From Clostridia bacterium (GTDB lineage Bacteria > Bacillota > Clostridia > HGM11514): 64,000 nucleotides of DNA. The stretch lies in assembly GCA_045586685.1 (NCBI GenBank), contig JAZNAU010000025.1, positions 1 through 64,000 of the forward strand. The letters run 5' to 3'. Each line of letters begins with the position of its first letter. Positions within the stretch are counted from its first letter, which is position 1. Both the position numbers and the translations under genes were made by a program. The notes beneath the pieces were generated by a model. That model did no database searches. It was not told the origin of the DNA and saw only the letters and a program-made list of their open reading frames with translations. Of the stretch, positions 11,747-57,130 are shown piece by piece.

Positions 11747-11760
11747 AATAACATATTTTT

Positions 11761-11774
11761 GTTGCAAATGCAAC
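11761..11774. promoter_or_regulatory. Putative Crp/Fnr-family operator
   Basis: Palindrome GTTGCA-AA-TGCAAC centred about -41.5 from a start inferred from TATGAT (11797-11802). Confidence 0.55.
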
Positions 11775-11839
11775 TGATTTTTCCGAAAAAAAGGAGTATG
11801 ATTATAAATACATCGAAAAAAAGAAAGGAGAAAAGGGAA

Positions 11840-13966
11840 ATGCAAGTCATAAAAAGAGACGGACGGATTGTGGAATATGATAGGACGAAGATTGCGGTTG
11901 CCATTCAGAAGGCAAATGATGCGGTAGAAGAATCGGAACGTGCGTCACAGCAAGAAATTGACGAGATTCTCTCCTACATTGAAAAAAGAAATAAGCAAAG
12001 AATGCTGGTAGAGGATATTCAGGATATTATCGAACGTAAGCTGATGGAATTCAATCATTATATATTGGCAAAAATCTATATTATTTACCGTTATTCCAGA
12101 GCGTTGGTAAGAAAGGCAAACACCACGGATGAATCCATTCTGACCCTGATTCAGAACGCCAATCGGGATGTGATGGAGGAAAATTCTAATAAAAATGCGG
12201 TTGCCGCTGCAACTCAACGTGATTTGATTGCGGGAGAGGTATCCAAGGATTTAACCAAGCGCATTTTACTGCCCGAAAAAATTTCCAATGCCCACGAGGA
12301 GGGTGCGATTCATTTTCACGATGCAGATTATTTTTTACAGCCCATTTTTAACTGCTGTTTGATTGATATCGGAAATATGCTGGACAACGGTACTGTGATG
12401 AACGGAAAAATGATTGAAAGCCCCAAAAGCTTTCAGGTTGCATGTACTGTTATGACGCAGATTATCGCTGCCGTTGCAAGCAGTCAGTATGGCGGTCAGT
12501 CGGTGGATATCCGTCATTTGGGGAAATATCTTAAGAAAAGCTATTTAAAATATAAAAAGAGCATTAGTGAGGTGGCAAATGGTGAACTGAGCGAGGAAGT
12601 GCTGGAAAAACTGACACGGGACAGAGTGACGGACGAGCTTCGTTCCGGAGTACAAACCATTCAGTATCAGATCAATACTTTGATGACCACAAACGGTCAG
12701 TCTCCCTTTGTAACTTTGTTTTTACACCTTGATCCGCAGGATGAATATCTGAAAGAAAATGCGATGATTATAGAAGAAATTCTCCGCCAGAGGTTAGAGG
12801 GCATAAAAAATGAACAGGGTGTTTATGTGACCCCCGCTTTTCCAAAATTGGTGTATGTTCTTGACGAGCACAACTGCCTTAAGGGAGGTCGGTATGATTA
12901 CATCACCAAATTGGCGGTAAAATGTTCTGCAAAGCGGTTGTATCCTGACTATATTTCCGCAAAGAAAATGCGGGAGCATTATGAAAATAATGTATTCAGT
13001 CCCATGGGTTGCAGAAGCTTTTTATCACCCTGGAAGGACGATGAAGGAAATGATAAGTTTGAAGGACGGTTCAACCAAGGAGTGGTGAGCCTGAATCTTC
13101 CTCAGCTTGGTATTCTGGCAAAAGGGGACGAGGAAGAATTCTGGAAACTGATGGAGGACAGACTTGCACTTTGCTTTGAGGCGCTTATGTGCCGTCATCG
13201 GGCATTGCAGGGGGTTAAGTCGGATGTGAGCCCTGTGCATTGGCAATACGGAGCCATTGCAAGGCTGGATAAGGGTGAAACCATAGATCAATTCCTGTAC
13301 GGGGGCTATTCCAGTATTTCCTTGGGCTATATCGGACTTTATGAATTAACGAAGCTCATGAAAGGTGTTTCCCATACCCAAGAAGGGGGCAAGGAATTTG
13401 CCCTGAAGGTGATGCAACATCTAAGGGATACCACCGACCGTTGGAAAAAAGAAACGGGTATCGGCTTTGCTCTGTATGGTACTCCTGCAGAATCTTTGTG
13501 CTATCGTTTTGCACGGATTGACAAACAACGATTTGGTACCATCAAGGACGTGACTGACAAAGGCTATTATACCAATTCCTATCATGTGGATGTACGGGAG
13601 GAGATTGACGCCTTTTCCAAATTTGCCTTTGAAAGCCAGTTCCAGACCATTTCCTCGGGAGGTGCTATTTCCTATGTGGAAATTCCCAATATGCGGAATA
13701 ATCTGGAAGCATTGGAGGATGTGGTACGGTTTATTTACGACAATATCCAGTATGCGGAGTTTAATACTAAGAGTGATTACTGCCATGAGTGCGGTTACGA
13801 CGGAGAAATTATGATAAATGATGACAACGAGTGGGAATGCCCTGTTTGTCATAACATGGATCACAGAAAGATGAATGTGACCAGACGAACCTGCGGATAC
13901 CTTGGAGAAAACTTCTGGAATGTAGGAAAAACCAAGGAAATTAAGGCGAGAGTATTACATTTGTAA
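11840..13966 (+). CDS. nrdD: Anaerobic (class III) ribonucleoside-triphosphate reductase
   Basis: ATP-cone VIKRDGR, MGCRS finger loop, YYTNSYH, CHECG..CPVC, glycyl-radical motif RTCGYLG. Confidence 0.97.
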   Translation: MQVIKRDGRIVEYDRTKIAVAIQKANDAVEESERASQQEIDEILSYIEKRNKQRMLVEDIQDIIERKLMEFNHYILAKIYIIYRYSRALVRKANTTDESILTLIQNANRDVMEENSNKNAVAAATQRDLIAGEVSKDLTKRILLPEKISNAHEEGAIHFHDADYFLQPIFNCCLIDIGNMLDNGTVMNGKMIESPKSFQVACTVMTQIIAAVASSQYGGQSVDIRHLGKYLKKSYLKYKKSISEVANGELSEEVLEKLTRDRVTDELRSGVQTIQYQINTLMTTNGQSPFVTLFLHLDPQDEYLKENAMIIEEILRQRLEGIKNEQGVYVTPAFPKLVYVLDEHNCLKGGRYDYITKLAVKCSAKRLYPDYISAKKMREHYENNVFSPMGCRSFLSPWKDDEGNDKFEGRFNQGVVSLNLPQLGILAKGDEEEFWKLMEDRLALCFEALMCRHRALQGVKSDVSPVHWQYGAIARLDKGETIDQFLYGGYSSISLGYIGLYELTKLMKGVSHTQEGGKEFALKVMQHLRDTTDRWKKETGIGFALYGTPAESLCYRFARIDKQRFGTIKDVTDKGYYTNSYHVDVREEIDAFSKFAFESQFQTISSGGAISYVEIPNMRNNLEALEDVVRFIYDNIQYAEFNTKSDYCHECGYDGEIMINDDNEWECPVCHNMDHRKMNVTRRTCGYLGENFWNVGKTKEIKARVLHL

Positions 13967-13981
13967 AAAAGGAAAAAATAT

Positions 13982-14497
13982 ATGAATTATGCAGTGATAA
14001 AACCTCATGATGTTGCCAACGGCCCTGGGGTGAGAGTATCCCTGTTTGTCAGCGGATGTCCTCATCGGTGCCCAGGATGCTTTAATAAAGAAACCTGGGA
14101 TTACCAATACGGCGCTCCTTATACGAGCCGAACAGAAGAAGAAATTTTATCCGCGTTAGCTCCCTCCTATATCAAGGGATTTTCCCTGCTGGGCGGAGAG
14201 CCCTTTGTTCCGGAGCATCAGAAAGTCTTGTTTCCTTTGCTGAAAAAAATACAAGAGACTTTGCCGGAAAAAACAGTATGGGCATACAGCGGTTACACTT
14301 GGGATACTCTGCCTGACAGGTGTTTGCTCCCTTACATTGACGTATTGGTGGACGGCCCCTTTATTGAGGCGGAAAAGGATTTAAATTTACGGTTTCGTGG
14401 GTCGGGAAACCAACGGTTGATTGATGTACAAAAAAGTTTGAAGCAAGGGAAAGTTATCTTGTGGACAGACACGAGAATAGAGGAGGAAGAAAAATGA
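13982..14497 (+). CDS. nrdG: Anaerobic RNR activating radical SAM protein
   Basis: DVANGPGVRVSLFVSGCPHRCPGCFN, LLGGEP, RGSGNQR. Confidence 0.96.
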   Translation: MNYAVIKPHDVANGPGVRVSLFVSGCPHRCPGCFNKETWDYQYGAPYTSRTEEEILSALAPSYIKGFSLLGGEPFVPEHQKVLFPLLKKIQETLPEKTVWAYSGYTWDTLPDRCLLPYIDVLVDGPFIEAEKDLNLRFRGSGNQRLIDVQKSLKQGKVILWTDTRIEEEEK

Positions 14498-14925
14498 AAG
14501 TAGCAATACAAAAATTAGATGATCGTGCAGTGGTGCCTACTTACGGGTCAGAATTTTCTGCCGGTGCGGATTTATATGCTATAGAAGATGCGGTGGTTGA
14601 AGCAGGAGAAACGGTGCTGGTGCATACGGGACTTGCTATGGAAATCCCCCAAGGCTACGGTGGTTTTATTTACGCCAGAAGCGGTCTTGCCAGCAAAAAG
14701 GGGCTTGCCCCTGCCAACAAGGTGGGTGTGATTGATGCGGACTATCGGGGAGAGATTATGGTGGCACTATATAATCATTCAAAGGAAAGCAGAACCGTTT
14801 TGGCAGGAGAACGGATTGCTCAGCTGGTGATTGCACCCTTCCTGAAAGCCGAATTTGAAGTAACGGAAAGTTTGTCCGATACCCTTCGCGGAAGCGGTGG
14901 TTTTGGTTCAACAGGAACAAAATAG
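14494..14925 (+). CDS. dut: dUTP diphosphatase
   Basis: AGADL, RSGLA, GVIDADYRGE, RIAQLV, RGSGGFGSTG. Confidence 0.96.
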   Translation: MKVAIQKLDDRAVVPTYGSEFSAGADLYAIEDAVVEAGETVLVHTGLAMEIPQGYGGFIYARSGLASKKGLAPANKVGVIDADYRGEIMVALYNHSKESRTVLAGERIAQLVIAPFLKAEFEVTESLSDTLRGSGGFGSTGTK

Positions 14926-14976
14926 TATAAATTATTCCTAAAAAAGATAGAATAAAAAGAAAGGGAGGAAGAATAA

Positions 14977-15576
14977 ATGGATAAGTCGGCAATGTTTCGT
15001 CTGGGCTATGGTCTTTATATCCTCACCGCCAAGGATGGGGAAAAAGACAATGGTTGTGTCATCAACACCGTCATGCAGGTGACAGACAATCCTTTACAGG
15101 TGATGATAGGGGTCAACAAGAGCAATTATACCCATGCTATGATGGTGAAAACAGGGAAGTTTAATGTATCTGTTTTATCGGAATCTGCGCCTTTTTTTGT
15201 TTTTCAACATTTTGGCTTTCAGTCGGGAAAAACAGTAAATAAGTTTGAAAATCAAACAGTAGAACGCGGAATAAATGATGTGGCAGTTGTAAAAGAGCAT
15301 TGCAATGCCTACTTAGAGTGCAGCATCAAAGAGATTATGGATGCAGGTACTCACAGCCTCTTTTTAGCCGAGGTGACGGAAGCGGAGGTGTTGGGAGATG
15401 CTCCTTCTATGACCTATTCTTATTATCACAGACATGTAAAACCAAAGCCTGACAAAAAGGCAAAGGGCTGGCGCTGTAAAATCTGCGGTTATGTGTACGA
15501 GGGCGAGGAATTGCCCGATGATTTTATTTGTCCTCTTTGTAAGCATGGAGCATCGGATTTTGAAAAAATAGAATAA
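14977..15576 (+). CDS. Flavin reductase-like protein with C-terminal rubredoxin domain
   Basis: YGLYILT, NGCVINT, FGFQSG, GTHSLF; C-terminal WRCKICGYVY..CPLC. Confidence 0.9.
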   Translation: MDKSAMFRLGYGLYILTAKDGEKDNGCVINTVMQVTDNPLQVMIGVNKSNYTHAMMVKTGKFNVSVLSESAPFFVFQHFGFQSGKTVNKFENQTVERGINDVAVVKEHCNAYLECSIKEIMDAGTHSLFLAEVTEAEVLGDAPSMTYSYYHRHVKPKPDKKAKGWRCKICGYVYEGEELPDDFICPLCKHGASDFEKIE

Positions 15577-15586
15577 AATTGAAGAA

Positions 15587-15639
15587 AGATGCACTGACCG
15601 CACAAAGCAAGAAGATTGCTTTATGCATCGGTGCATTTT
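15587..15639 (+). terminator. Long hairpin ending the nrdD operon
   Basis: ATGCACTGA..GCA.AAAGCAA / TTGCTTT.TGC..TCGGTGCAT followed by T run. Confidence 0.6.
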
Positions 15640-15696
15640 TACTATAATTTCAAAATTTCTCTTTTCTTTTTCTGAAAACTATGGTATAATAGATTT

Positions 15697-15865
15697 GCGA
15701 CATAATTTTATATTCCTTAATTTACTTTACATAAGTGTGTATTTTTTATCCTATGATAAAAATGCACGCTCCATTTCGTTTGCTTATGTAAAGTAAAAGG
15801 AAAAATTGTGTCGCTACAAGGAGTTGTGCATTTTTGGGTGCGTGGCTCCGGCTGCGCACTTTTTT
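15697..15865 (+). ncRNA. Candidate structured leader or small RNA (unassigned family)
   Basis: Begins about 7 nt after TGnTATAAT (15682-15690); 118-nt nested inverted repeat 15697-15814 incl. a perfect 15-bp helix; ends in GC hairpin plus T run 15837-15865. Confidence 0.55.
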
Positions 15866-15885
15866 ATTATAAGGAGGAAGGTAGA

Positions 15886-16176
15886 ATGGGGATAAAAAAA
15901 GAATTGGTGATGGAAGCAATTATGGCTATGATGAAAGAAAATTTTGACCGTTATCTGGAGTTTGATGAAACAAATGTGGCGGACACCGTTGCCATTCAGG
16001 TAGTTTCGGAAATTCAGAAGGTACTGCAAGCAGATTATTATTACTATGACCCCGATGATTATAATGAAATATTGGAAAATCAAGGGGAAAATACAGATTT
16101 TGATATTGTGGAAGCCATTGTTCGTATTTTTGAGAAATATCATCTTGATGCAGGTGCGTGTCATGATTTTGGGTAA
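15886..16176 (+). CDS. Small acidic hypothetical protein, 96 aa, ending ACHDFG
   Basis: Strong RBS AAGGAGG 15871-15877, ATG 15886; no recognisable family. Confidence 0.75.
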   Translation: MGIKKELVMEAIMAMMKENFDRYLEFDETNVADTVAIQVVSEIQKVLQADYYYYDPDDYNEILENQGENTDFDIVEAIVRIFEKYHLDAGACHDFG

Positions 16177-16240
16177 GTTCAAAAAAATTTTGGAATATAA
16201 AAGGGAACCTAAATAGGTTCCCTCGTCTAGCCACCAAATT

Positions 16241-18763
16241 TTAAGCTGTTACAATTTTACTTGCATCTTGGAGATTCAGCATTTCTACAGCTTGCTCTCT
16301 CATTTTATATTTCAAAATTTTTCCTGCTGCGTTCATGGGAAAACTGTCAACAAAAGCCACATATCTGGGAATCTTATGCTTTGCCATATGATCCCGTACA
16401 TAGGTTTTGATTTCTTCTTCCGTACATTCTTCGCCTTCCTTTAAGATAACGCAAGCCATAATTTCTTCTCCGTACTGCTTGTCAGGAACACCGATGACCT
16501 GAACATCTTTTACCTTATCGTAGGTATAAATGAAATCTTCAATTTCTTTGGGATAAATGTTTTCACCGCCACGGATAATCATATCTTTGATTCTGCCTGT
16601 AATTTTATAGTTTCCGTCAGGCAGACGGCGAGCTAAATCCCCTGTATGCAACCAACCGTCCTTATCAATGGCAGCGGCGGTTGCTTCTGGCATTTTGTAA
16701 TATCCCTTCATAATATTGTAGCCACGTGCGACAAATTCACCGTCTACATTATCAGGCAAATCTTCCCCTGTTTCAGGGTCAACAATTTTGTTTTCTACAC
16801 CAAAAATAGCACTTCCCACCGTATTGACACGAACATCAATGGAATCGGTGGTTTTACTCATGGTACATCCCGGTGAGGCTTCAGTCTGCCCGTAGGTAAT
16901 ACAGATTTCGCTCATGTTCATCTTGTTAATGACATCTTCCATAATTTTAACGGGACAGGGGCTTCCTGCCATAATGCCCGTTCTCATGTAGGAAAAATCC
17001 GTCTTGTCAAAATCTTCATGCTCCAGCATGGCAATAAACATGGTGGGAACACCGTGAAAGGCGGTTATTTTTTCTTTGTTAATACAAGCCAGCCCTTTTC
17101 TGGGTGAAAAGGCCGGAATGGGTGACATGGTGACACCGTGAGTCATAGAGGCGGTCATTGCCAGTACCATGCCGAAGCAGTGGAACATGGGCACCTGAAT
17201 CATCATCCTGTCTGCAGTGGATAAATCCATACAGTCACCAATGGCTTTTCCGTTGTTTACTACATTATAGTGAGTCAACATAACACCTTTTGGGAAACCT
17301 GTGGTTCCGGAGGTGTATTGCATATTACAAACGTCATGTTTATCAATCTGACGGCGACGTGCCTCCACGGCATACAGAGGAACTTGTTCGGCAAGGGCAG
17401 TTGCATCCTCCCAGGTGTAGCAACCGGGTTGACGGCTGTCAATGGTGATAATGTTCCGCAGTTCCGGCAGTCTTAATGAATATAACTGGCCGGGTTTACA
17501 GGTCTGAAGCTCGGGGCAAAGCTCTTTGATAATGCCCACATAGTCAGAATCCTTATAGCCGTCGACCATAACCAAAGTGTGGGTATCAGACTGTTTTAAC
17601 AGGTATTCTGCTTCGTGAATTTTATATGCAGTATTGACCGTAACCAAAACTGCACCGATTTTGGTGGTTGCCCAGAAGGTAATGTACCACGCAGGAACGT
17701 TGGTTGCCCAAATAGCAACGTGATCTCCTTTTCCTACGCCCATGGCAATCAGAGATCTTGCAAAACGATCTACATCATCTCTGAACTGGGGATAGGTTCT
17801 GGTGTAATCAAGCTCTGTATAGCGAAATGCATACTGGTTGGGAAATTCTTCACACATTCTGTCCAACACATCCGGAAACGTGTAGTCAATCAGATGCTCC
17901 TTCGGCCATACATATTTTCCTGTTTTTCTCTTGTTTTCCTGCAACGGATATTTGTGATGGGTGCGGTAGGGTGCCATAAAGTTTGCATAGTGAGGGACTA
18001 CAACCCCTGCATTAGACAAGCCCTTTGACCAACGCTTTACCCATTCCAGAGAAACATAACCATCATATCGCTGAGCATTTAATGCGTCAAACATATCCTT
18101 TAAGGGAAGGTCACCTTCGCCCATCATCTTGTAAGAAACGGTGTTGCCTTCCATCACACTGTCCTTGGTATGTACATACTTAATATAGCTTGACAAGTTT
18201 TTAATGGTATCATAAGGGGATTCATTTGCATACCGATAAGGGTGATGCATATCCCAAAGAGCGGCAATAAACTGGCTGTTTACTGCATCTAGTACGGTTT
18301 TCAATCGCTTTGTATCGGCATACACACCGTTGGTTTCTACCAATAGTGTTACATTCCCGTCTTCAGCAAGCTTAGAAAGCTCCTTTAATATCTGAATAAT
18401 ATATGTATCGTCTACATCACCGCCCGGTGCGGGATCAGAGTCAGCAAGAATACGGATAAACGGTGTGTTCAGCTTTCCTGCCAGTGCAATATAGGTTGCA
18501 ATTTCTTCTACAACACTGTTGTGCTCCTTTTTGTTCTTTAACACGCATCCGGATGATAGGCAGGGAATGGTTAAGCCAAGTTCGTCCAGCTTTTCCACCG
18601 TTCTGGTTAGTTGCGATTCGGTAAAGGGTTTTGCCTTTACTGCGCAAATATCTTCTCCCAGACCGCGAATTTCAATTCCGTCAAAATTTAAATCCTTTGC
18701 CATAGAATAAATATCTGACCAGTCGGAATCGGGACACGCAAGTGTCGAGAAACAAATTTTCAT
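16241..18763 (-). CDS. Fusion: xylose-isomerase-like TIM barrel + AMP-binding acyl-CoA synthetase
   Basis: N-part FSTLACP, GIEIRG, VETNG, WDMHHP, HTKD, SLEW; C-part QYTSGTTGFPKG, YGQTE, WLHTGD, GRIKDMIIRGGENIYPKEIE, GKILK. Confidence 0.9.
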   Translation of the reverse strand: MKICFSTLACPDSDWSDIYSMAKDLNFDGIEIRGLGEDICAVKAKPFTESQLTRTVEKLDELGLTIPCLSSGCVLKNKKEHNSVVEEIATYIALAGKLNTPFIRILADSDPAPGGDVDDTYIIQILKELSKLAEDGNVTLLVETNGVYADTKRLKTVLDAVNSQFIAALWDMHHPYRYANESPYDTIKNLSSYIKYVHTKDSVMEGNTVSYKMMGEGDLPLKDMFDALNAQRYDGYVSLEWVKRWSKGLSNAGVVVPHYANFMAPYRTHHKYPLQENKRKTGKYVWPKEHLIDYTFPDVLDRMCEEFPNQYAFRYTELDYTRTYPQFRDDVDRFARSLIAMGVGKGDHVAIWATNVPAWYITFWATTKIGAVLVTVNTAYKIHEAEYLLKQSDTHTLVMVDGYKDSDYVGIIKELCPELQTCKPGQLYSLRLPELRNIITIDSRQPGCYTWEDATALAEQVPLYAVEARRRQIDKHDVCNMQYTSGTTGFPKGVMLTHYNVVNNGKAIGDCMDLSTADRMMIQVPMFHCFGMVLAMTASMTHGVTMSPIPAFSPRKGLACINKEKITAFHGVPTMFIAMLEHEDFDKTDFSYMRTGIMAGSPCPVKIMEDVINKMNMSEICITYGQTEASPGCTMSKTTDSIDVRVNTVGSAIFGVENKIVDPETGEDLPDNVDGEFVARGYNIMKGYYKMPEATAAAIDKDGWLHTGDLARRLPDGNYKITGRIKDMIIRGGENIYPKEIEDFIYTYDKVKDVQVIGVPDKQYGEEIMACVILKEGEECTEEEIKTYVRDHMAKHKIPRYVAFVDSFPMNAAGKILKYKMREQAVEMLNLQDASKIVTA

Positions 18764-25770: not shown

Positions 25771-27249
25771 ATGTTTACTTATGCCAAACCGGAGGAAGTG
25801 GGGATTTCCTCAAAAAGTATTAAGAGATATATAGAAGTTCTGGAAAAAGCGGGACTCTCCAATCATTCAGTTATCATTGCTCGACATGATAAGATTGTTT
25901 ATGAAAACTACTGGGCACCCTTTCACAAGGATTTCTTGCACAGAATGTATTCTGTGACAAAAAGTTTTGTTTCTCTTGCCATAGGTGCTCTTTACGAAGA
26001 AGGAAAGCTTTCTCTGGATGATAAAATTGTAGATTTATTTCCGCCTGAAATTACGGAAGGTGCCTGTGAAAACGTAAAAAAACAAACGGTTCGTAATATG
26101 TTGATGATGAGCACAGGTTATCCGTACAGCGGGCCGGGAAGTTGGTTTGTCCAAAAACCGGCTGACAGACTTCGGCATTATTTCAAATCAAGCGGGGATG
26201 GCACTATTCCGAAGGTTCCCGGAGCTTTATTTAATTATGATTCCCCTGGCTCCTTTGTACTGGGTGCATTGGTAGAGGAATTGTCCGGTATGAGTTTACT
26301 GGACTACCTTCGCAGTAAATTTCTTGATAAAATCGGTTTTTCGAAGGAAGCTTATATGTTGCAGTGTCCGGGGGGGCACTCCTGGGGCGATTCGGCATTG
26401 ATGTGTACCTCCATGGATTTGCTGAAAACGGCGAAATTTACCATGAATTTAGGCTCCTGGGAAGGAGAACAGCTCCTTGACAGAGAGTATGTTCGCACGG
26501 CAACCTCCAATTTGATTTCCACTCATCATCGGGAACATCCTTCTGTGTATGGTTACGGCTATCAGATTTGGAGACTTCGTGATAACAGCTTTTTCTTTAA
26601 CGGATTGGCTTGTCAGTTTGGGGTTTGTATTCCAGATAAGGACATTGTTTTTGTTTATAACGGGGACAATCACGGAAATCCATCTGCCAAAACCATTGTA
26701 TTGGATAATTTCTTTAATCTGGTTGTGGACGAGGTCGGAGAACCTATGCCGGATAACGATGCTGATTATAACGCATTGACGGAGTACAGCCGTTCACTTG
26801 TGCTGAATCACTGCGGTGAAGGTGTAGCTGACAATATTTCTGATCAAATCAACGGCAAGACTTTTAGCCTCAATGAAAATCCTATGGGCATAAAGACAAT
26901 TCGATTTACTTTTTCCGGTGATGAGGGTGTTATGGAGTACACCAATGAACAGGGAGATAAGAAGCTTGCTTTTGGAATGGGAAAAAATGTATTTACTAAA
27001 TTTCCTCAGGAAGGTTATTCCGATATGGTAGGCACCGTGTATGAAAAAGGAAATTATTACGATTGTGCTGTTTCTGCTCAATGGCAAGAAAAAAGCATGC
27101 TGTATGTATCTGTTCAAATTATTGATAAGTATTTCGGGCGGTTGCATATGTATTTTGCCTTTACCGAGGATGGTCAAATCGTAGTGCAAATGAAAAAAAC
27201 TGCAGAAGCCTTTTTGAATGAATATAACGGTTTCGCAACAGGACAATAA
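25771..27249 (+). CDS. Serine hydrolase, beta-lactamase/class C-like family
   Basis: SxxK in YSVTKS, LMMSTG, FNYDS, YGYGYQIW; no signal peptide. Confidence 0.85.
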   Translation: MFTYAKPEEVGISSKSIKRYIEVLEKAGLSNHSVIIARHDKIVYENYWAPFHKDFLHRMYSVTKSFVSLAIGALYEEGKLSLDDKIVDLFPPEITEGACENVKKQTVRNMLMMSTGYPYSGPGSWFVQKPADRLRHYFKSSGDGTIPKVPGALFNYDSPGSFVLGALVEELSGMSLLDYLRSKFLDKIGFSKEAYMLQCPGGHSWGDSALMCTSMDLLKTAKFTMNLGSWEGEQLLDREYVRTATSNLISTHHREHPSVYGYGYQIWRLRDNSFFFNGLACQFGVCIPDKDIVFVYNGDNHGNPSAKTIVLDNFFNLVVDEVGEPMPDNDADYNALTEYSRSLVLNHCGEGVADNISDQINGKTFSLNENPMGIKTIRFTFSGDEGVMEYTNEQGDKKLAFGMGKNVFTKFPQEGYSDMVGTVYEKGNYYDCAVSAQWQEKSMLYVSVQIIDKYFGRLHMYFAFTEDGQIVVQMKKTAEAFLNEYNGFATGQ

Positions 27250-27252
27250 AGA

Positions 27253-27291
27253 AAAACGGTTGTAGCAAAATGATTTTGCTACAGCCGTTTT
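27253..27291. repeat. Bidirectional terminator, palindrome family copy 2
   Basis: AAAACGGTTGTAGCAAAAT-G-ATTTTGCTACAGCCGTTTT between convergent genes. Confidence 0.75.
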
Positions 27292-28201
27292 ATAATGAAA
27301 CGAAATCAGATTGATTTAGTCTGCCGAAGGAAAAGAGACCGTAGCCGTAATAGGGGTCCCAGCCCTTTCCTCCCAAATCTTCGGTATAAAGATGAAGAAG
27401 AAATCGAACTTCTTTCGGGGACAGGAAACGGCGGTATCGATGCATTCCTTTGGCTTGTATCAAGGCGGCAGCACCGCTGATAATGGGGGTTGCCATAGAA
27501 GTTCCGCTTAATTTTGCATAAGAATTGCCGGGATAGGTGGAATAAATATCCACCCCGGCGGCACAAAGCTCGGATTCATATCCGGCAGAGCTGAATTCTG
27601 TTGATTTTCGGTTGGGGTCGACGGCGGTAACCGCAATAGTCTGAGGAAATTTGCCCGGGAATCCAATGGTGTTTTTCTTTTTACTCCCTTCATTTCCCGC
27701 GGCACAGATGAGGGTAATGCCATGATTGGTCGCTGCTTGCAAAATTTCTTCATAACCCTTGGAGGGTTCATCGGAGGAAAAAGACATATTTACGATTTGT
27801 ACCCGTTTTCGAATCATCCATTCCAGACTTTTATAAATGGCGGGAAATTCACCGTTCCCCTGTTTGTCAAAGGCTTTTGCAATGTACAAATTACATTCGG
27901 GTGCCATTCCTACTACACCCATTCCGTTTTTTCGAGCACCGATGATTCCTGCCACATGGGTGCCATGGCCGTTGTCATCCTGAGGACTGTTGGAAATAAA
28001 GCTAACCGCATCGGCAATGTTTTCGGATAAATCCCTGTGATTTAAGTCAATACCCGTATCAATAATTCCTACCCGGACTCCTTTGCCCGTGACCTCCCCC
28101 CATTCTAAGGGTGCACCTGCCATGCGGATGCCGTAGTCAATGACCTCTTGGGGTTGCCTTGCCTTGACTTGTATAATGGTATAATCAGAAATGTTATGCA
28201 T
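27290..28201 (-). CDS. S8 subtilisin-like serine peptidase
   Basis: Triad IIDTGID, HGTHVAG, GTSMATP; AAGN; no signal peptide. Confidence 0.92.
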   Translation of the reverse strand: MHNISDYTIIQVKARQPQEVIDYGIRMAGAPLEWGEVTGKGVRVGIIDTGIDLNHRDLSENIADAVSFISNSPQDDNGHGTHVAGIIGARKNGMGVVGMAPECNLYIAKAFDKQGNGEFPAIYKSLEWMIRKRVQIVNMSFSSDEPSKGYEEILQAATNHGITLICAAGNEGSKKKNTIGFPGKFPQTIAVTAVDPNRKSTEFSSAGYESELCAAGVDIYSTYPGNSYAKLSGTSMATPIISGAAALIQAKGMHRYRRFLSPKEVRFLLHLYTEDLGGKGWDPYYGYGLFSFGRLNQSDFVSL

Positions 28202-56687: not shown

Positions 56688-56761
56688 GGAGGCGCCACCC
56701 GGATTTGAACCGGGGCATAAAAGCTTTGCAGGCTTCTGCCTTACCGCTTGGCTATGGCGCC
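56687..56761 (-). tRNA. tRNA-Cys(GCA)
   Basis: GGCGCCATAGCCAAGCGGTAAGGCA-GAAGC CT GCA AA GCTTT..GGTTCAAATCC..GGCGCCTCCA. Confidence 0.96.
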
Positions 56762-56799
56762 ATGGGATGAAAAAGACGCATAAGGGTTATGCGTCTTTT

Positions 56800-56874
56800 T
56801 GGAGCGGAAGACGGGATTCGAACCCGCGACGTTCACCTTGGCAAGGTGACGCTCTACCACTGAGCCACTCCCGC
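56800..56874 (-). tRNA. tRNA-Gly(GCC)
   Basis: GCGGGAGTGGCTCAGTGGTAGAGCG-TCACC TT GCC AA GGTGA..GGTTCGAATCC..CGCTCCA. Confidence 0.97.
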
Positions 56875-56934
56875 ATAGAGGAAGAAGTCTTCCTTGTGTA
56901 TATAAAGTGCACAAAGCACACTTTAATCGAAATG

Positions 56935-57010
56935 TGGTGCCTCCGGGTGGAATCGAACCGCCGACACAGGGATTTTCAGTCCCTTGCTCTACCGACTGAG
57001 CTACAGAGGC
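56935..57010 (-). tRNA. tRNA-Phe(GAA)
   Basis: GCCTCTGTAGCTCAGTCGGTAGAGCA-AGGGA CT GAA AA TCCCT..GGTTCGATTCC..GGCACCA. Confidence 0.97.
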
Positions 57011-57053
57011 ATAATATTTTGTGTCGGTTGTTAAGACACACAGAAAGGAAAAA

Positions 57054-57130
57054 TGGCGACCCGGAAGGGGCTCGAACCCTCGACCTCTAGCGTGACAGGC
57101 TAGCGTTCTAACCAACTGAACTACCGGGCC
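57054..57130 (-). tRNA. tRNA-Asp(GTC)
   Basis: GGCCCGGTAGTTCAGTTGGTTAGAACG-CTAGC CT GTC AC GCTAG..GGTTCGAGCCC..GTCGCCA. Confidence 0.97.

Follow-up and report, generated by a model that had tools for sequence, protein, structure and literature searches.

A conserved promoter-leader-terminator cassette before unrelated genes of Clostridia and its probable role in transcription attenuation

Does the structured RNA in front of a small gene form a closed unit with that gene, or does it serve a more general purpose? This question is raised by a stretch of 64,000 nucleotides (nt) from a Clostridia bacterium (contig JAZNAU010000025.1 of assembly GCA_045586685.1; hereafter the window), which at 15682-15865 carries an extended -10 promoter, a rod-shaped RNA and an intrinsic terminator directly 5' of the ribosome-binding site (RBS) of an open reading frame (ORF) of 96 amino acids (aa). 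The first-pass annotation of the window described the promoter, the rod, a 15-bp helix, an inner hairpin, the terminator, the RBS and the ORF, all of which are present in the sequence at the places it gave, and took them for a self-contained RNA-protein pair. That pairing did not survive, since the same leader is found before many unrelated genes. In our view 15682-15865 is likely to be a copy of a conserved promoter-leader-terminator cassette of ~170 nt that gates read-through by transcription attenuation, with the 96-aa ORF as one of its many cargo genes and not as a partner to the RNA. In silico we could establish the helices with their covariation and co-adaptation, the number of copies, their promoters and the heterogeneity of the cargo; the mechanism proposed below rests on comparative and thermodynamic evidence.

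The RNA from 15690 to 15875 has a minimum free energy (MFE) of -65.5 kcal/mol, compared to -36.4 ± 3.75 kcal/mol for 200 dinucleotide shuffles (z = -7.8), none of which folds as stably as the native RNA. Its parts, the helices P1 and P2 and the segments A, B, D, E and F, are listed in Table 1. The internal loop between P1 and P2 reads AAUAU or UAAUAU in most leader copies (conservation judged by eye), the apical loop has a conserved consensus, uUuGGUA, and P2 is formed in all 12 leaders that were folded, despite its unconserved sequence. The intrinsic terminator (stem 15836-15861, T-run through 15865) lies between the promoter and the RBS of the 96-aa ORF, and the interval between terminator and RBS offers no space for a second promoter. 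The leader belongs to no curated RNA family. With the covariance models of Rfam 15 (4227 families) nothing in window positions 15500-16300 reached the gathering threshold, and with permissive filters the best matches were miRNA and atoC models (21-22 bits against thresholds of 50-249 bits; E 0.1-0.4). Tandem Repeats Finder returned no rows, and thus no tandem repeat, for the leader region; on both counts the first-pass annotation, which had seen neither repeats nor a known aptamer, proved correct. A full-text literature search found no description of the leader motif, although a catalogue of thousands of unnamed candidates from human microbiomes, of which parts were accessible (PMC8040213), could still include it.

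The leader is conserved as a structure. Homologues of the 96-aa ORF carry the same upstream arrangement with compensatory changes, in line with what a check proposed with the first-pass annotation had looked for: among the 35 loci of the protein family that were examined, the leader layout is present in 14 (two of them cut by contig ends) and a terminator remnant only in one, leaders of ORF homologues from different species have their layout in common, and RNAalifold, run on a MAFFT alignment of leaders, recovered P1 and the terminator with a compensatory change in 12 out of 17 pairs. Larger sets were collected with a covariance model (R1) that was built from an alignment of 11 leaders (A4) and has P1 and the terminator as its only structure. 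In alignment A5 (94 matches, 91 distinct copies), 94.9% of the cells in P1, the terminator and the B:D helices are paired, against 80.0% in shuffles, a level reached by none of 500, and slid registers give 34-60%; in A6, made up of 74 additional copies belonging to other families of the class, the values are 98.2% and 84.4%, again reached by 0 out of 500 shuffles. Both-sided changes occur in all 10 modelled pairs of P1 in A5 (94.7% of cells paired, and 99.6% in A6) and in all nine terminator pairs of A5 (99.4% paired). The B:D helices, which are absent from the structure of R1 and were written as a pseudoknot for counting, provide for that reason the cleaner test of covariation: they are paired in 95.8% and 85.5% of cells in A5, with both-sided changes in 8 of 14 pairs, and in 96.8% and 96.3% in A6, with both-sided changes in 9 of 13. 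In P1, column pair 11/304 is U-G in 29 of the 91 copies of A5, and this wobble argues for selection on RNA and not on a DNA repeat.

Energies point in the same direction. In 85 distinct copies the mean energy of the B:D duplex is -15.8 kcal/mol with the native D segment and -11.1 kcal/mol with D swapped among copies, the native combination being the better one in 82. The alternative pairing of 15758-15772 with 15820-15835, noticed already in the first-pass annotation, is thus real and, given its covariation and co-adaptation, conserved. For the D:E hairpin the mean of the same copies is -11.0 kcal/mol, compared to -8.3 with D swapped (native better in 71) and -4.7 with D shuffled, and this hairpin formed in 12 of 13 leaders folded with the 3' arm of the terminator masked, the thirteenth having been mis-masked. 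The terminator hairpin averages -14.8 kcal/mol (85 copies). Since the median cost of freeing B from the rod is 5.8 kcal/mol (87 copies), the net gain of B:D is about -10 kcal/mol before any pseudoknot penalty, against -11 for D:E, so that on average the alternatives are nearly isoenergetic, as a poised switch would require. For the copy in the window the values are -19.3 (B:D), 10.3 (freeing B), -14.0 (D:E, 3' arm masked) and -15.1 kcal/mol (terminator), and in this copy the balance would therefore lean towards read-through as long as nothing frees or stabilises B. The description of the RNA as real, conserved and switch-like is supported.

These pairings suggest the following course of events. 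The transcript would start within a few bases of P1 and fold into a rod made up of P1, the small 5' internal loop, the variable P2 and an A/U-rich apical hairpin. Segment B lies in the upper 3' side of this rod and D just 3' of it, with D complementary to both B and E, and with E and F predicted to form the terminator. D would pick its partner while RNA polymerase stands between E and F. With B locked in the rod, D would pair with E as an antiterminator and the downstream ORF would be transcribed; were B to capture D, in a pseudoknot serving as anti-antiterminator, E would be set free, the terminator E:F would form and only the RNA of ~170 nt would be made. That termination is conditional in this manner we infer from the sequences and energies of the four segments.

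Several points weigh against conditional attenuation. Because P1 and the terminator guided the fitting of A5 and A6, the counts for these two helices are biased towards the structure, and copies within genomes and among related genomes are not independent. The covariation of D:E is weak: its core is paired in 92.4% of cells with mostly one-sided variation, both-sided changes are confined to 1 of 5 core pairs and 3 of all 8 tested, and its both-sided pairs and pair types are no better than those of shuffles (484 and 496 of 500 reach them), so the support for D:E comes mainly from the swap energies. The energy models leave out the pseudoknot penalty and the kinetics of folding. Strong conservation of unpaired nucleotides is rare outside the relay segments, a weak basis for a small-molecule aptamer, and neither a ligand pocket nor a protein partner was found for the leader in these analyses. 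Finally, an ORF is missing behind part of the units, and others are arranged in tandem with a promoter for each, all of which would fit a free-standing small RNA just as well.

Could the units then be independent small RNAs with effects in trans, exerted for instance by titration of a protein or by pairing via B or D, with a leaky terminator and with the downstream genes as mere passengers? Every unit has its own strong promoter and terminator, and its 5' end is buried in a helix. Several units lack an ORF (in our numbering of genomes and loci, G000 contig 21 at 27151-27307, L053, L069, L128, L135, L143, L161 and L176), and in the tandem arrays at G000 C39:30165-30538 and G004 C6:111014-111682 the upstream units can make a short RNA only. 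In addition, B and D of different copies could cross-pair, the swapped duplexes mentioned above still averaging -11.1 kcal/mol. Against this, in most copies the RBS and start codon lie so near to the U-run that transcription of the ORF needs read-through, and the co-adaptation of D and E within copies would be needless for a plain terminator. We therefore regard an exclusive role in trans as unlikely, though it is compatible with attenuation, as terminated leaders could act in trans too. Behind the ORF-less units, just after 27151-27307 on G000 contig 21 (L049, about 1660-1800) and likewise in the other loci named above, a B-like segment and a copy of the 5' strand of P1 are followed by a second terminator; the former two amount to the reverse complement of the 3' strand of P1 plus D, and the read-through RNA of such units could fold back over the first terminator.

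The number and distribution of the copies set the leader further apart from its neighbour in the window. In the 1.55-Mb genome of which the window is part, R1 found seven copies, including that in the window, that of a paralogue of the 96-aa ORF on contig 47, one without an ORF behind it and three before AbrB/MazE-like genes, one of these with a second unit in tandem upstream. In the order there are 82 matches (E ≤ 1e-3) in 10 of 12 genomes, with up to 16 per genome, and in the class at least 42 of 151 genomes and at least 27 of 107 genera have matches (E ≤ 1e-5), with up to 17 per genome; the 151 genomes were drawn evenly and 19 candidates per genome were scored, so that the class figures are lower bounds. 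High copy numbers in unrelated contexts, with many copies within a few hundred bases of contig ends, like repeats that break assemblies, would also be expected of a selfish repeat resembling a miniature inverted-repeat transposable element (MITE), or of a mobile promoter cassette, the hairpins of which serve transposition or recombination and have no function as RNA. Recombination between units is indeed suggested by the tandem units of L009 (2633-2816) and L023 (2763-2815), where the promoter region is duplicated and what lies in between is a truncated small-ORF remnant (MNIKKDFSVLYRKEQAPSLQFH) or an RBS only, as if cargo had been deleted. However, copies inside one genome diverge widely (50-137 bits), the sequence of P2 is unconserved, the conserved parts are exactly those of the relay of B, D, E and F, and the compensatory changes in P1, with their frequent G-U pairs, would be meaningless in a DNA repeat. 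The Pfam matches beside copies include no transposase (there is one weak IS200-like match, at the leaderless locus L033), plasmid sequences gave no match to the leader, and in IMG/VR a strict leader pattern occurs at one locus. A purely selfish element is consequently very unlikely. The mini mobile element considered in the first-pass annotation may still be the way in which the cassette spread, even though compensatory and G-U changes reveal selection on the RNA. Partial leader matches were also noted on two unannotated contigs from human faeces labelled "Bacteriophage sp.", MT835845.1 (2114-2231) and MT837627.1 (2227-2290), which cover either the leader's 3' two-thirds or its terminator part (identities of 78.6% over 71% and 83.1% over 37% of the query).

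The promoter is part of what is conserved. In nearly all of 90 copies inspected TGnTATAAT ends 6-8 nt upstream of P1, a good -35 element (TTGACA, TTTACA or TTGCAA) accompanies it in most, and the few with a displaced promoter are weak matches in which the start of the model is off-register. This fixed distance implies that the promoter belongs to the conserved unit and that the transcript starts at the foot of the rod. In the window itself a simple promoter scan left the promoter uncalled because the -35 is poor in this copy, and the extended -10 element was read from the sequence instead. In most copies an RBS and ORF follow within about 13-30 nt of the U-run. The 10-16-bp inverted repeats formed by P1, which flank a segment of ~100 bp between promoter and ORF, bring to mind another device, the cwpV switch of Clostridioides difficile, the terminator of which forms in one orientation according to the part of the report available to us (PMC2784873). 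As in that system, control by intrinsic termination in the leader is combined with much surface-protein cargo, and inversion of a segment bounded by P1 would put its complement in the place of B and so remove the anti-antiterminator. We looked for such an inverton and discarded it: an inverted core is present in none of about 165 assembled copies, B being forward in every copy inspected. The columns of B hold its A-run in 82-86 of 91 rows of A5 and 73-74 of 74 rows of A6, gapped rows being forward by eye. With no recombinase gene seen beside the copies and with G-U pairs that mark P1 as an RNA helix, a phase-variable DNA switch of this kind is hardly credible.

If attenuation is what the cassette does, the genes that it would control are diverse. 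A tally of 90 matches from the order and the earlier loci, made from script output plus reading, gave 13 genes for proteins of the family of the 96-aa ORF (the CHDFG family), 14-16 for an AbrB/MazE-like domain of ~75 aa with a CxxC...CxxC tail, about nine for proteins with a signal peptide, four for zinc-ribbon membrane proteins, three YpsA/SLOG-like, four RelB-like and one KAP NTPase; in six units all that follows is a tiny ORF with FP at its end, and about 10 units are followed directly by the next one. Pfam assigned, among 34 cargo ORFs, 11 to MazE_antitoxin (six above the curated cut-off), five to LRR_5, three to Zn_Ribbon_1, two to RelB and one each to KAP_NTPase, Cu_amine_oxidN1 and VWA_2, with two weak matches to YpsA. 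Among 42 cargo ORFs from other families of the class it found LRR_5 (seven), Cu_amine_oxidN1 (four), MazE (two), SLH, RCC1, HTH_3, TerB and HicA (one each), and one weak match each, below cut-off, to HIRAN and Zn_ribbon_RanBP, and 22 had no match. The surface proteins include leucine-rich repeat proteins of the BspA type, and the AbrB-like genes behind leaders in the window's own genome are monocistronic.

Some cargo recurs without a name. Loci L146, L150, L158 and L172 encode a Cys-rich protein of ~83 aa (MIIDGPTGIELIPGNGGKDCPGNG...), and L129, L134, L149, L163 and L170 an acidic helical protein of 37-65 aa starting with M[DA][DN]YK..Y..LFN.IT; the members of both that were scanned had no Pfam match. 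In a subgroup of leaders with P1 GCCAAGUC (L062, L070, L081, L087, L088, L091) a conserved stretch and a strong RBS are followed by an ORF of 5-7 codons that ends in Phe-Pro or Val-Pro (MSISWFP, MRIFDFP, MERFP, VSIFTVP, VKLLSFP) and could encode a micro-peptide or a stalling peptide.

The protein encoded in the window belongs to an unnamed, helical and acidic family, nearly all members of which are stand-alone proteins of 77-78 aa with the core ...SEIQxV...SDF[DE]IVExIVCIFEKYxIDxGxCHDF(G). The remark in the first-pass annotation that short proteins with the ending HDFG are recurrent is confirmed by this alignment and by the searches: a word-indexed search with the 96-aa protein gave 11 relatives, and a profile of 38 members (A3), run against 1.84 billion cluster representatives, gave 624 at E ≤ 1e-3 and 241 at E ≤ 1e-10. 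The 96-aa ORF itself matched nothing above cut-off in Pfam (best E = 0.03) or NCBIfam (best 16 bits against a cut-off of 290), nothing in PADLOC or PHROGs and, in usable form, nothing in the ESM Atlas. Its AF2 model is all-helical (mean predicted local distance difference test, pLDDT, 81.7) with a poorly defined C-terminal tail; Foldseek found no similar fold in the PDB at E ≤ 0.001, and in a wide VIA-align comparison the best Z was 4.4. Between the last helix and the tail (window positions 16120-16173) Cys and Arg appear to be exchanged: members with IVC in that helix end in CHDF or RHDF, CHDFG is the invariable ending of those with IVR or IVK, to which the window copy and its close relatives belong, and no member of the alignment has Arg or Lys at both positions. 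This hints that the tail may pack on the last helix, perhaps around a metal or an active site with the invariant His-Asp.

How closely is this family tied to the leader? A private RNA-protein module, be it a toxin-antitoxin pair resembling type III or a protein binding its own leader, would be in keeping with the order of promoter, RNA, terminator and ORF, with the leaders carried by both paralogues in the window's genome, and with the class sample, where at least 9 of 24 family members have a leader match, among those listed, directly upstream. Yet the same leader precedes many other genes. In the class sample the family occurs in 14 of 150 genomes, 12 of them leader-positive, but 30 of the 42 leader-positive genomes do not possess it (E ≤ 1e-5), which makes autoregulation private to the 96-aa protein, as the first-pass annotation had also proposed, unlikely. 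Moreover, 16 of the 35 family loci have, instead of the leader, a divergent short gene for a helix-turn-helix (HTH) protein of the XRE type (64-102 aa; Pfam) directly upstream, and the remaining neighbours in the 35 loci are unrelated housekeeping genes. The comparison with type III systems (ToxIN), suggested by the common order of parts, fails on three further counts, since the leader has no tandem RNA repeats, no ToxN/AbiQ-like protein or other toxin-like family or fold was found for the ORF, and many unrelated genes are served; ToxI-like candidates are mentioned in the accessible parts of the microbiome catalogue (PMC8040213). Taken together, we consider a private module of the 96-aa ORF highly improbable. 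Given the two types of upstream region, the small gene is rather a monocistronic unit under either an RNA or an XRE regulator, and an unnamed family with 624 cluster representatives would thus be under two interchangeable controls, a leader RNA or an XRE repressor. The leaderless, XRE-paired loci are L011, L013, L015, L016, L019, L026, L027, L030, L031, L033, L034 and L037-L041; in L030, L038 and L040 the pair adjoins sigA-dnaG.

If the cassette acts by attenuation, with what known systems should it be compared? Riboswitch and attenuator platforms of Firmicutes include three-tier designs with an anti-antiterminator, and ZTP and c-di-GMP-II (cyclic di-GMP) are aptamers that use pseudoknots. The platform of the leader, as read from its sequence, resembles such terminator/antiterminator devices: a predicted terminator directly before the RBS, an alternative helix for the terminator arm (D:E) and an element competing with it (B:D) are all present, the helices B:D, D:E and E:F are mutually exclusive with similar, poised energies, and a tandem arrangement occurs occasionally. 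As in c-di-GMP regulons, the cargo includes surface proteins and regulators. In contrast to these platforms, the part that would act as sensor is a long rod in which few unpaired bases are conserved, and the leader matches none of the Rfam families searched. Unusual, too, are the promoter inside the conserved unit at a fixed distance, tandem units that each have a promoter, and up to 17 copies per genome before functionally unrelated genes. Attenuators that depend on a protein (PyrR, TRAP, the RAT of LicT/SacY, ANTAR targets) likewise control a regulon by a common RNA element choosing between terminator and antiterminator, and their regulons, too, contain the gene of a small regulator, which in the case of the leader is AbrB/MazE-like with a zinc ribbon; unlike their targets, the leader has no UAG/GAG repeats, dual hexaloops or RAT by eye, and no such Rfam match.

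The trigger that might tip the relay is a matter for conjecture. Binding of an ion or small ligand to the rod-pseudoknot, which would make the leader a true riboswitch, is a plausible candidate, and an RNA-binding protein is conceivable too; we are more reserved about a relay with no dedicated ligand that responds to polymerase speed or to pausing at the conserved U-tracts, and leave what remains of our expectation to RNA-RNA interplay between copies. Co-occurrence gave no guidance. An AbrB-like zinc-ribbon profile matched 121 of 151 genomes regardless of the leader and was uninformative, and the distribution of the CHDFG family in the class sample pointed to no trans-acting partner. The sole hints of a small ligand are the heterogeneity of the regulon and the one GGDEF gene in the window's genome; a search for c-di-GMP-I riboswitches found nothing but was uninformative, as control genomes gave no match either. 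Two other mechanisms were tried and rejected: for a leader peptide with ribosome-mediated attenuation, conservation is lacking in the small frames of the leader and several copies have no AUG in B (by eye), and for T-box-like sensing of tRNA through a UGGU in the apical loop, that loop is too variable (UGAU, UGUG, UGUA; by eye).

On a bolder and decidedly tentative interpretation of the sequences, the leader would be an orphan riboswitch class that may rank with the most copy-rich ones of gut Clostridia. An ion, a nucleotide second messenger or some other global signal would be bound by the rod and the B:D pseudoknot, and a strong constitutive promoter would be shut off by this binding. The genes gated would be those for adhesin-like surface proteins, AbrB/MazE-like and other small regulators and components of toxin-antitoxin systems. 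If the more general reading as an attenuator holds, a large share of Clostridia would gate dozens of accessory genes by one shared RNA device. The leader may thus point to a hidden regulon in uncultured gut bacteria, an unrecognised layer of gene control, and the alignment of about 165 copies with its testable relay of three helices is a resource for work on riboswitches and attenuators.

Some observations concern the window only (Table 1). The hairpin at 16201-16224, which the first-pass annotation took to close the unit, is present, but the minus strand carries its T-run, which makes it the probable terminator of the convergent gene for a protein of 840 aa (16241-18763, minus strand), perhaps acting in both directions. 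In the window (15826-15885), as in L004, L006, L014, L017 and L022, an AUG or GUG within segment D is the start of a frame that continues across the terminator and in several loci is in frame with the main ORF; it may be a by-product of RNA conservation.

Table 1. Features of the leader copy in the window and of its immediate surroundings (window positions).
Feature	Position	Strand	Basis or remark
Extended -10 element, TGGTATAAT	15682-15690	+	Read from the sequence; -35 weak in this copy
P1, 5' strand, GCGACAUAAUUUU	15697-15709	+	MFE fold; at or adjoining the predicted transcript start
Outer helix P1	15697-15709 with 15801-15814	+	MFE fold
5'-side internal loop, AUAU	15710-15713	+	MFE fold; no counterpart on the 3' side
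P2, 5' strand	15714-15735	+	Sequence variable among copies; contains the strand 15721-15735 of the 15-bp helix
Perfect 15-bp helix	15721-15735 with 15783-15797	+	Sequence and fold
Inner hairpin	15736-15768	+	Sequence
Segment A, GUGUGUAUUUUUUAUC, and apical loop CUAUGAU	15736-15757	+	A:B pairing in the window copy
Segment B, AAAAAUGCACGCUCC (DNA AAAAATGCACGCTCC)	15758-15772	+	Half sequestered in the rod; complementary to D
3' strands of P2 (15783-15797 and on) and P1 (15801-15814)	15783-15814	+	
Segment D, GGAGUUGUGCAUUUUU (DNA GGAGTTGTGCATTTTT)	15820-15835	+	Partner is B or E
Segment E, GGGUGCGUGGCUCC, 5' arm and loop of terminator	15836-15849	+	Antiterminator hairpin with D
Segment F, 3' arm of terminator and U-run	15850-15865	+	Terminator prediction
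RBS, AAGGAGG	15871-15877	+	Read from the sequence; 8 nt before the ATG
96-aa ORF, ending in GACHDFG	15886-16176	+	ORF listing
Hairpin between convergent genes	16201-16224		T-run on the minus strand

Upstream of the cassette (11759-15576) a row of ORFs resembles, by eye, nrdD, nrdG and dut, and a flavin-reductase/rubredoxin fusion (Pfam) comes next; in the convergent ORF of 840 aa the C-terminal 468 aa are an AMP-binding enzyme (Pfam). Five tRNA genes, four of them clustered, were noted on the minus strand at 235-318 and 56690-57130.

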